From the UHGV virus genome UHGV-1706157: a stretch of DNA of 17,319 nucleotides, one strand, 5' to 3'. Of this stretch, positions 6,210 through 7,208 are shown piece by piece. The DNA is from a virus. The stretch's first letter is position 1, and each line of letters begins with the position of its first letter. The translations under genes were made by a program, and so were the position numbers. The notes beneath the pieces were generated by a model. The model had not been told where the DNA came from, did no database searches, and worked only from the letters and a program-made list of their open reading frames with translations.

Positions 6210-7208
6210 TTATCCGTTACCGCGCGACGGTTTCTGCGTGATAAACGTCTCAAGCATCTTTTCCGCAATTGCCGACCAGGTGTGACACTGGACCTTTTCA
6301 GCATTTTTCACGCGATCAACGCGAGCAATAACCTCATCCCAATCAATCCGCGACTTGATAACCATATGGTTCACCAACTCCAGGCGATCCGGCGGAAGGC
6401 AATCGGGCGGAGTTAATATCAACGCTCCACACATTGCCGCCTCAAGAACAGTTAATCCAAGGCTTTCGGGATGCGTAACGATAAAAACGTCACTCTTACG
6501 CAATTCAGCTGCAAATTCGGTTGCTGGCACCGGCGTCCGCCTGTATGGAGTTACCGAAATATTCCCCGGATCAATGGTAACCAATCCGTCATCAGTCAAC
6601 GTTCTGGCCTCATACGGAACGGTCAGACGCTGAAGGTTCATAAGGATACTTAAGGAGTGATCAAAACCACTAACATCAAATGCAGCGTGGTCTACAAAAA
6701 TACGCAGAATATCGTCTGTTTTGGTTTCCAGATGGAACAGCTCCTGATTCGCTGCCCATCCAACATGTTTGTTAAAACGATTATGACGCTCTAACCTGCC
6801 GGGATTATCCAGGTACCGCCAGGTATCATCGCGGACAGTAAAAGTAATATCGACTGGTGCCGAATCCAGCATAGAACCGTCATATACCTGGGCTACCCAT
6901 CCAGAGAATCGGCGACACAGTTGCATGCCTATTTCCCTGGGTACCGTAGTAAAATACCTCAATCCTGGTGCCAAAATGGCCTTCGCAGAACATGCGGTCG
7001 CAGCAGTCAACACAGCTTCAACATAATCCTCCGGGCTTTCGACGCCAGGGGAATATGGACGATGGTATTGCAATGTTACCCCTGCCTCACTAAAGGCGCA
7101 GGCCAGGTTATAAGCCCACATTTCCGTATATGTTTTCACATCACTGATAGCTTCAAATTTTCGCCCAATGATCAGGATGTTCATCGGCTTTTCCTCATTC
7201 CATTGCAT
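6210..7208 (-). CDS. GT4-family (GT-B fold) glycosyltransferase
   Basis: 332-aa ORF. C-terminal segment VFIVTHPESLGLTVLEAAMCGALILTPP carries the E-x7-E motif typical of retaining GT4 glycosyltransferases. The ATG at 7208 overlaps the upstream helicase stop; an alternative ATG at 7184 has a GAGGA SD. Confidence 0.65.
   Translation of the reverse strand: MQWNEEKPMNILIIGRKFEAISDVKTYTEMWAYNLACAFSEAGVTLQYHRPYSPGVESPEDYVEAVLTAATACSAKAILAPGLRYFTTVPREIGMQLCRRFSGWVAQVYDGSMLDSAPVDITFTVRDDTWRYLDNPGRLERHNRFNKHVGWAANQELFHLETKTDDILRIFVDHAAFDVSGFDHSLSILMNLQRLTVPYEARTLTDDGLVTIDPGNISVTPYRRTPVPATEFAAELRKSDVFIVTHPESLGLTVLEAAMCGALILTPPDCLPPDRLELVNHMVIKSRIDWDEVIARVDRVKNAEKVQCHTWSAIAEKMLETFITQKPSRGNG

Follow-up and report, generated by a model that had tools for sequence, protein, structure and literature searches.

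Dbn of phage P1 is a predicted GT-B glycosyltransferase that may act with PmgO, PmgP and PmgQ in a phage glycan module

The gene dbn ("downstream of ban") is carried on a 17,319-nucleotide stretch of DNA (UHGV virus genome UHGV-1706157; hereafter the window, at its full length) that represents a contig of a P1-type phage-plasmid. Over the 2.7 kb tested, the window matches Punavirus P1 MH422554 at 100% identity and the P1 reference NC_005856 at 98.9%, running antiparallel to the latter. As annotated in P1, the dbn open reading frame (ORF) spans positions 6210..7208 on the minus strand (332 codons plus stop, with its ATG at 7208..7206), and it follows immediately upon ban (7208..8572, minus strand, also called to 8578), which encodes a DnaB-like replicative helicase and belongs to the same operon. 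We find that Dbn is very probably a functional glycosyltransferase of the GT-B fold, as judged from its modeled structure, and that it represents a divergent, GT4-like form of such enzymes. Moreover, it is rather likely that Dbn works with the products of pmgO, pmgP and pmgQ, whose homologs adjoin those of dbn in several other phage lineages. Our preferred explanation, which we hold with a probability of roughly 0.4, is that Dbn is a GT-B enzyme within a phage glycan module that modifies a virion protein.

Neither the gene nor its glycosyltransferase label is new. Since 2004, the P1 annotation has described dbn as "function unknown, possible glycosyltransferase", the P7 gene is named glt, and RefSeq copies are called "glycosyltransferase family 4 protein". 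The core of an earlier prediction made from the letters of this DNA, which gave the exact position of the ORF and left its minus strand unsaid, is therefore existing annotation rather than a discovery. That prediction missed the pmgO, pmgP and pmgQ genes, which are the real functional context of dbn. In the literature we searched, where we found no functional study of pmgO/P/Q, of MptE-like phage glycosyltransferases or of Maf/capsid glycosylation, the grouping of dbn with these genes as one conserved glycosylation cassette of phages seems not to have been described.

The AlphaFold2 model of Dbn (predicted local distance difference test score, pLDDT, 88.3; predicted template modeling score, pTM, 0.85) exhibits a complete GT-B fold with two Rossmann-like domains, rather than the incomplete fold that the original prediction had named as the outcome that would count against it. 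The best structural matches of this model are all GT4 enzymes, and the best viral match is a glycosyltransferase of Tupanvirus (template modeling score 0.76-0.80). The E-x7-E motif of retaining GT4 enzymes is likewise present as claimed, with E248 (6465..6467) and E256 (6441..6443) residing in THPESLGLTVLEAAMCG and the whole motif (6441..6467) contained in VTHPESLGLTVLEAAMCG. In the family alignment these residues belong to a putative donor-binding motif, T245-H246-P-E248-S-x6-E256 (EX7E; 6441..6476, minus strand), and a profile search of the PDB with the Dbn family matched this segment only, aligning THPES...LE with the EX7E regions of MshA and of an Actinobacillus glucosyltransferase (8xsg).

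Among 98 aligned family members, residues D173, H174, E256 and G261 are invariant, with conservation of 90% or more at D110, G150, W151, D183, F242, T245, H246, E248, S249 and G251. Two of these features distinguish Dbn from canonical GT4 enzymes. The near-invariant H246 within THPES is an extra histidine specific to this family, and the invariant D173-H174 pair (6687..6692, minus strand) follows the first strand of the C-terminal domain (residues 168-172), where the sequence reads VDHAAFD. Judged by eye from its position, without superposition, this D-H pair would replace the G-R phosphate-binding element of typical GT4 proteins.

The assignment to GT4 is thus favored by the fold, the structural neighbors and the EX7E motif, but it is not supported by curated sequence models. 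Dbn stays below the Pfam threshold that defines the Glycos_transf_1 group to which PimA, BshA, MshA, sucrose-phosphate synthase and WaaG belong, and the N-terminal GT4 models (PF13439 and PF13579) give no match at E ≤ 10. NCBIfam yields one match of 13.8 bits and nothing useful, PHROGs assigns the protein to phrog_2518 ("unknown function"), and a single-sequence search of the PDB returns nothing meaningful or significant. Dbn is also compact for a GT4 enzyme at 324 amino acids, counted from the start codon that we favor below. The kinship with WaaG suggested by the original prediction finds no echo in the model, since WaaB ranks 19th and WaaG only 35th among the structural matches.

Dbn has a small family. 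When 1.84 billion representative proteins were searched exhaustively with HMMER, 372 members were recovered, to which a profile search of a 5.8-billion-protein set, constrained by a word index, added one. A scan of GTDB representative genomes found one P1-like Escherichia contig and a 209-bp fragment only, and two scans of IMG/VR returned P1-like loci only, with no new contexts. At 90% identity the family comprises 22 clusters, compared with more than 500 for the PmgP family. Because the PmgP family is so much larger, we regard Dbn as an optional addition to a common core of PmgO, PmgP and PmgQ. Some relatives are parts of larger proteins: the 320-kb Stenotrophomonas jumbo phage RAS14 encodes a 552-amino-acid hypothetical protein with a Dbn-family domain (locus L096, 7590-9248; hidden Markov model E value 2e-74), and in several further members the family domain is joined to a methyltransferase domain or to a second GT1 domain.

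Within P1-like elements, dbn is under purifying selection and is retained near-universally. The 81 P1-like loci that we compared carry 52 alleles encoding 43 protein variants, with no stop or frameshift and a median pairwise dN/dS of 0.12. E248, E256, D110, W151, D173, H174, D183 and H246 are intact in every one of the 43 variants, and of the 483 PLSDB plasmids that match a ban-dbn query, 429 cover it to 80% or more. The protein is presumably soluble, because its maximum hydropathy over 19 residues is 1.5. Its N-terminal domain, which in a GT-B enzyme of this type would receive the acceptor, is acidic (isoelectric point 5.8, charge -3.2), and the corresponding domain is acidic or neutral in 14 of 16 homologs.

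The functional form of Dbn is probably the 324-amino-acid protein that starts at M9. An ORF of 332 codons is indeed present, as the original prediction stated, but M9 (MNILIIG) is the position at which every homolog outside P1 begins in the alignment, eight of the 81 P1-like IMG/VR loci lack the first eight codons, and residues 1-9 have low pLDDT in the model; together these observations identify the shorter form as the conserved protein. This core occupies 6210..7184 (minus strand, ATG at 7184..7182), and in the window M1 and M9 alike are preceded by GAGGA, 6-7 nucleotides upstream (7196..7192 for M9). Start annotations of the gene differ accordingly among sources: 287 amino acids for P7 glt (L100, 2176-3039), 332 for P1 dbn, and 324 as supported by the homologs.

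The predicted overlap with the helicase gene is real in this DNA. The ban stop codon (TAA, 7210..7208) shares one base with the first dbn ATG, giving TAATG at 7210..7206, and this arrangement makes translational coupling possible. It is nonetheless a property of only some P1 variants and is not conserved. In the eight loci mentioned above, the DNA upstream of M9 is unrelated and contributes a further ORF of 101 codons and the Shine-Dalgarno sequence AAGGAG, and dbn there encodes 324 amino acids without overlapping ban. In about 10% of P1-like elements (L079, 9699-10004, and seven others), an insert of about 300 bp between ban and dbn replaces the TAATG junction, and its 101-codon ORF begins MQRKLTKRNKNWLSDML.

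The evidence that most changes the outlook on dbn comes from its neighbors in other genomes. We fetched the contexts of homologs at 39-58% identity and compared the neighboring genes with all P1 proteins. In four lineages other than P1, a Dbn homolog lies between or adjoins homologs of PmgP and PmgQ. Two lambdoid contigs (L003 and L005) carry the order PmgO-PmgP-(an extra GT-A-like protein)-Dbn-PmgQ, in overlapping frames and just upstream of the terminase; a phage-like contig (L091) carries PmgP-Dbn-PmgQ-PmgO; and a 111-kb coliphage (L095, EP_H11) carries PmgO-PmgP-Dbn-PmgQ. In P1 and in two other phage-plasmids (L002 and L004) the same genes are dispersed on one replicon, within 5-7 kb of each other. 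The two phage-plasmids have the order pmgM...pmgO-P-Q-R-S with dbn 5 kb away, and in P1 dbn is about 6 kb from pmgO-pmgP-ppp-pmgQ on the same strand. The window itself holds only the first ~190 nucleotides of pmgO (49..242, minus strand), where the contig end cuts the gene, and the pmgO-pmgP-(ppp)-pmgQ set continues beyond it. In P1, the place that dbn takes between pmgP and pmgQ elsewhere is filled by ppp (L007, 24755-25429), a Ser/Thr phosphatase gene (Metallophos, E 8e-16), and we propose that the cassette has been split, with ppp in the dbn slot and dbn sitting behind ban.

The partners appear, from profile and fold comparisons, to be glycosyltransferase-like proteins as well. PmgO and PmgP are paralogous (hhalign probability 97.7%), and PmgP folds like Maf proteins and the sialyltransferase Cst-I, with MptE pyrophosphokinases matching equally well. 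Their matches to the Pfam MptE-like model (PF01973) are weak, at about 21 bits against a threshold of 34.6, and hhalign gives a probability of only 43-52% against a bona fide MptE-like protein. We also considered direct homology between PmgO/P and the lipopolysaccharide (LPS) enzyme WaaZ, and the hhalign probability of 10-12% against E. coli WaaZ is too weak to claim it. The PmgQ profile matches structures of the GT8 family, including the Skp1 alpha-galactosyltransferase (E 1.2e-5), glycogenin and LgtC, and PmgQ bears the motifs DLD (a DxD motif) and HGxPRP.

An association between Dbn and the MptE fold extends beyond phages. All nine non-P1 loci examined at 39% identity or more pair Dbn with an MptE-fold gene, and such a gene was not found beside two distant relatives, one at ~30% identity (L090) and that of RAS14 at ~26%. 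Three of the contexts are non-phage (L092, L177 and L179; 39-52% identity), and there the Dbn homolog, intact or slightly damaged, lies one to three genes from an MptE-like gene whose product passes the Pfam threshold and has precomputed WaaZ_KDO_III matches. Other neighbors encode further GT4-like enzymes and an acetyltransferase, and in Colwellia also exporters of the KpsM/T/D type. The pairing of a Dbn-type GT4 enzyme with an MptE-fold protein is therefore conserved across phage and cellular glycan pathways, and this conservation suggests that one enzyme of the pair makes the acceptor for the other.

Two of these relatives have peculiarities of their own. The Colwellia homolog (L092, 8153-9154), located in a kps-like capsule locus, has an in-frame stop at 8357-8359, and the identical 233-amino-acid product is called on 15 contigs; the stop could be recoded, could mark a pseudogene or could be an assembly error that recurs. 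The 36.7-kb JGI metagenome contig L090 carries two distant Dbn paralogs together with two GT2 genes, a methyltransferase, an NDP-sugar epimerase/dehydratase, GlmS and T5orf172, and looks like a glycan-synthesis island of a large virus.

If these genes act jointly, the module might operate as follows. The core would consist of PmgO and PmgP, with their paralogous Maf/sialyltransferase/MptE fold, and the GT8-like, DxD-containing PmgQ, while Dbn would be an optional fourth member, an active, soluble, cytoplasmic transferase that uses nucleoside diphosphate (NDP) sugars and represents a small, divergent GT4-like subfamily. PmgO and PmgP would place the first sugar on the acceptor, plausibly an ulosonic acid such as 3-deoxy-D-manno-octulosonic acid (Kdo) from a cytidine monophosphate (CMP) donor. 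E. coli K-12 is not known to make any CMP-ulosonic acid other than CMP-Kdo. PmgQ and Dbn would then extend the glycan with hexoses from NDP-sugars, and in Dbn the donor would be bound by E248 and E256, with D173-H174 and H246 at the phosphate/sugar site. We suggest that the acceptor is a virion protein, namely the capsid protein or some other protein of the head, and that it would receive its glycan in the cytoplasm, either ahead of assembly or while assembly proceeds.

A virion protein seems the most likely acceptor because the genes of the module are found within operons for late functions or head morphogenesis. In an HK97-like prophage of Pseudomonas (L097), PmgO-P-Q and a GT-A-like gene directly follow the major capsid gene and precede head-completion genes, and in an Ochrobactrum prophage (L098) PmgP-Q lie between head-tail connector and head-closure genes. 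In an Alloalcanivorax prophage (L099) and the Citrobacter phage phiNP (L101) the module is found between lysis genes and terminase, and in the two lambdoid contigs no lysis genes were identified beside the module, which sits just upstream of the terminase. In every case that we have seen, the O/P/Q module is part of a late or morphogenesis transcription unit. The annotators of P7 named these pmg genes hdmA-D ("head morphogenesis"), likened them to orf7 of Pseudomonas phage D3, and recorded a C1 operator ahead of the hdm genes. A virion target is also favored because the enzymes would be soluble and cytoplasmic and the acceptor domain of Dbn is acidic, and because the Maf, glycogenin and Skp1 transferases all build glycans on proteins. 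On these grounds we tentatively name virion proteins as the target, while recognizing that the odds of this assignment, taken by itself, fall short of even. It is a bolder and, in our view, rather unlikely generalization that P1 and a broad, so far unrecognized set of Proteobacteria phages (HK97-like Pseudomonas and Ochrobactrum prophages, lambdoid phages, the ~111-kb coliphage and phage-plasmids) glycosylate their own virions, most probably the capsid or head proteins, by means of a conserved cytoplasmic module.

Several observations weigh against virion glycosylation by such a module. A paper on the proteomics of P1 virions does not mention glycosylation, and we found no biochemical evidence of a glycan on the P1 virion. 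PmgP is about 55-60% identical across phages whose capsid proteins are unrelated, which speaks for a conserved acceptor in the host over capsids that differ, and the bacterial contexts of Dbn homologs are polysaccharide pathways, which are lipid-linked, rather than protein glycosylation pathways. The embedding in structural or late operons is seen for the O/P/Q core (in the Pseudomonas, Ochrobactrum and Alloalcanivorax prophages, phiNP and the two lambdoid contigs) and not for P1 dbn, which lies in the early, C1-controlled ban operon apart from the pmg genes, so that co-expression must be assumed. The best curated match of Dbn itself, to Pfam Glycos_transf_1 (PF00534), is confined to residues 229-315 and, at 23.9 bits, falls short of the gathering score (26.4). 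Finally, published CRISPR interference and knock-out experiments show that neither plaque formation nor antirestriction requires dbn, pmgO, pmgP, ppp or pmgQ, which is compatible with any accessory role in decoration.

The main rival to a virion target is LPS. Under this alternative, which we consider unlikely but deserving of attention, Dbn with or without PmgO/P/Q would modify nascent LPS core, Kdo or another lipid-linked glycan at the inner membrane, with the result that progeny or superinfecting phage fail to adsorb or that properties of the outer membrane are altered at lysis. The LPS core is the P1 receptor, and the families represented in the module also build this core in E. coli, where WaaG and WaaB are GT4 enzymes, WaaO and WaaJ belong to GT8, and WaaZ belongs to the WaaZ superfamily; overexpression of WaaZ reportedly truncates the outer core (Frirdich 2003). 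The clusters in which bacterial Dbn homologs adjoin genes of the MptE/WaaZ_KDO_III type are kps-like capsule or polysaccharide loci, an acceptor shared by many hosts, such as Kdo2-lipid A, would suit the high conservation of PmgP among them, and the module lies directly behind lysis genes in the Alloalcanivorax prophage and in phiNP. The likeness fades upon closer comparison, because Dbn has no special structural resemblance to WaaG or WaaB and the relation of PmgO/P to WaaZ is as weak as noted above. A cationic N-terminal domain serves as a heuristic mark of membrane-acting GT-B enzymes, and this domain is acidic in most phage homologs of Dbn. Furthermore, masking of the receptor would be inefficient, because a cytoplasmic enzyme made only in lytic growth, late or after C1 derepression, cannot alter LPS that has already been exported. 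The location of the module inside blocks of head genes would be unusual for a gene of lysogenic conversion, and the published knock-outs lack a plating or antirestriction phenotype. The original prediction had suggested that Dbn could remodel the receptor, with the LPS core in mind, for superinfection exclusion, or glycosylate another substrate. We see no specific support for remodeling of the LPS core, given the acidic N-terminal domain, the C1-repressed ban operon and the late-operon partners, and given the published knock-down and knock-out of dbn, neither of which shows a plating defect.

Two further explanations seem to us to have little chance of being correct. The enzymes might act on a small molecule or on nucleic acid, combining pyrophosphokinase chemistry of the MptE type with glycosyl transfer to modify a metabolite (a defense signal, cofactor or nucleotide) or DNA or tRNA. 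PmgP does resemble pyrophosphokinases too, the best structural neighbors of Dbn act on sugar phosphates, malate, tetrahydrobiopterin and glucose-1-phosphate, acidic and soluble proteins would suit such a role, and dbn in P1 shares an operon with phage tRNA genes and ban. The late or morphogenesis placement would be atypical for anti-defense genes, however, and the GT8-like PmgQ and the extra GT-A-like genes point to the building of a glycan. As for nucleic acid, genes for base hydroxymethylation or hydroxylation accompany the module in none of the loci seen, an acidic protein is unlikely to bind DNA, and P1 DNA is not known to be glycosylated. We accordingly set aside DNA glycosylation as a leading idea, and also the glycosylation of tRNA queuosine, which the tRNA genes of the ban operon had brought to mind, because no other context contains tRNAs.

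Comparably improbable is the notion that dbn is an independent moron, incidental beside ban and without a functional tie to the pmg genes, which might lie idle in E. coli K-12 because its donor or acceptor is strain-specific. This would account for the separation of dbn from pmgO/P/Q in P1 and the phage-plasmids, for the greater rarity of the Dbn family relative to PmgP, and for the failure to find a laboratory phenotype. It is difficult to reconcile with the repeated insertion of Dbn homologs exactly between those of pmgP and pmgQ, with overlapping frames, in four lineages; with the pairing to MptE-fold genes in bacterial clusters; and with the strength of purifying selection on dbn, which nearly all P1-like elements have kept.

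Glycosylation of virions has precedents, which in the literature we searched are limited to mycobacteriophages and giant viruses. As in those systems, the proposed module would consist of several virus-encoded cytoplasmic glycosyltransferases expressed alongside structural genes, and a link to giant viruses is seen in the Tupanvirus match of Dbn and in the distant relative within a viral-looking cluster of GlmS, epimerase, methyltransferase and GT2 genes. The set of enzymes differs, comprising two Maf-fold proteins, a GT8-like protein and a GT4-like protein, and in P1 the GT4 gene lies outside the structural operons; in addition, no glycan is known from P1 or from any of the Proteobacteria phages considered here. 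PmgO and PmgP depart from Maf flagellin glycosyltransferases, GT42 sialyltransferases and WaaZ in being much shorter than Maf, in falling below the Pfam threshold and in matching MptE equally well. Serotype conversion by Gtr systems is likewise performed by phage-borne sugar transferases, and such enzymes could change the phage's own LPS receptor. Gtr systems, which lysogens express, combine a flippase with membrane enzymes of the GT-C and GT2 types and do their work in the periplasm; the enzymes of the proposed module, in contrast, would be soluble and cytoplasmic, and their operons are either late or repressed by C1.

Long a model phage, P1 is also a phage-plasmid that commonly carries antibiotic resistance, and linking dbn with pmgO/P/Q in one sugar-adding module gives four orphan genes a testable role. 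Glycosylation of virions or of the envelope may be common in phages of Gram-negative bacteria. If the virion is the target, several "putative morphogenetic" pmg genes of P1 would encode glycosylation enzymes, with Dbn lengthening the glycan, and such decoration would matter for the immunogenicity and stability of therapeutic phages and for delivery vectors built from P1. Should the target be LPS, the module would represent a new, lytic-phase type of receptor editing.

Between dbn and the convergent gene 5 lies a bidirectional terminator-like hairpin, AAGAAAAGCCCG-gcgat-CGGGCTTTTCTT (6163..6189), with folding energies of -19.0 and -17.6 kcal/mol on the two strands. Although a simple terminator scan did not call it, this hairpin, a terminator predicted from folding, marks the end of the ban-dbn transcript. 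The levels of ban and dbn change together in a P1vir transcriptome, and in P1 the phage tRNA genes share the operon with both. A promoter scan inside ban yielded one site where 3.9 are expected, such that the annotated P1dbn and P2dbn promoters are unsupported here.

According to the P1 annotation the ban operon is repressed by C1, and the window contains four matches to the P1 C1 operator consensus ATTGCTCTAATAAATTT where 0.07 are expected by chance. Two of them, the overlapping operators Oban a and b (formerly Op72; 11548..11575), lie at the promoter of the ban operon, some 3 kb upstream of ban itself, and have zero and two mismatches, in agreement with the P1 annotation. An operator-like site with two mismatches lies at 1323..1339 (plus strand) in the divergent region between pmgL (minus) and gene 26 (plus), an area where the P7 annotation lists Op(26) and Op(hdm), and this site may couple the pmg operon to C1 control. 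The fourth match is found at 14835-14851, near 14.8 kb.

The window is a whole assembly contig with artifactual ends. Positions 1-48 and 17271-17319 represent read-through into Illumina Nextera adapters (CTGTCTCTTATACACATCTCCGAGCCCACGAGAC, index TCGACGTC, then ATCTCG), inverted at the left end and forward at the right, so that genuine phage sequence lies between about 49 and 17270, with the left adapter junction truncating pmgO. Between the tRNA/dmt region and ban, a 275-amino-acid gene (8962-9789, minus strand) is annotated in MH422554 as a "putative SPFH domain protein", and the reference P1 carries at this site tciA-tciB-tciC, which resemble genes for tellurite and colicin resistance. Lastly, pmgM (439-1017, minus strand) has a near-threshold match to the Pfam VRR-NUC nuclease domain (21.3 bits versus 23.8), and its homolog adjoins the pmgO-S block in the Citrobacter phage-plasmid L002. 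PmgM may thus be a nuclease rather than a morphogenetic protein.

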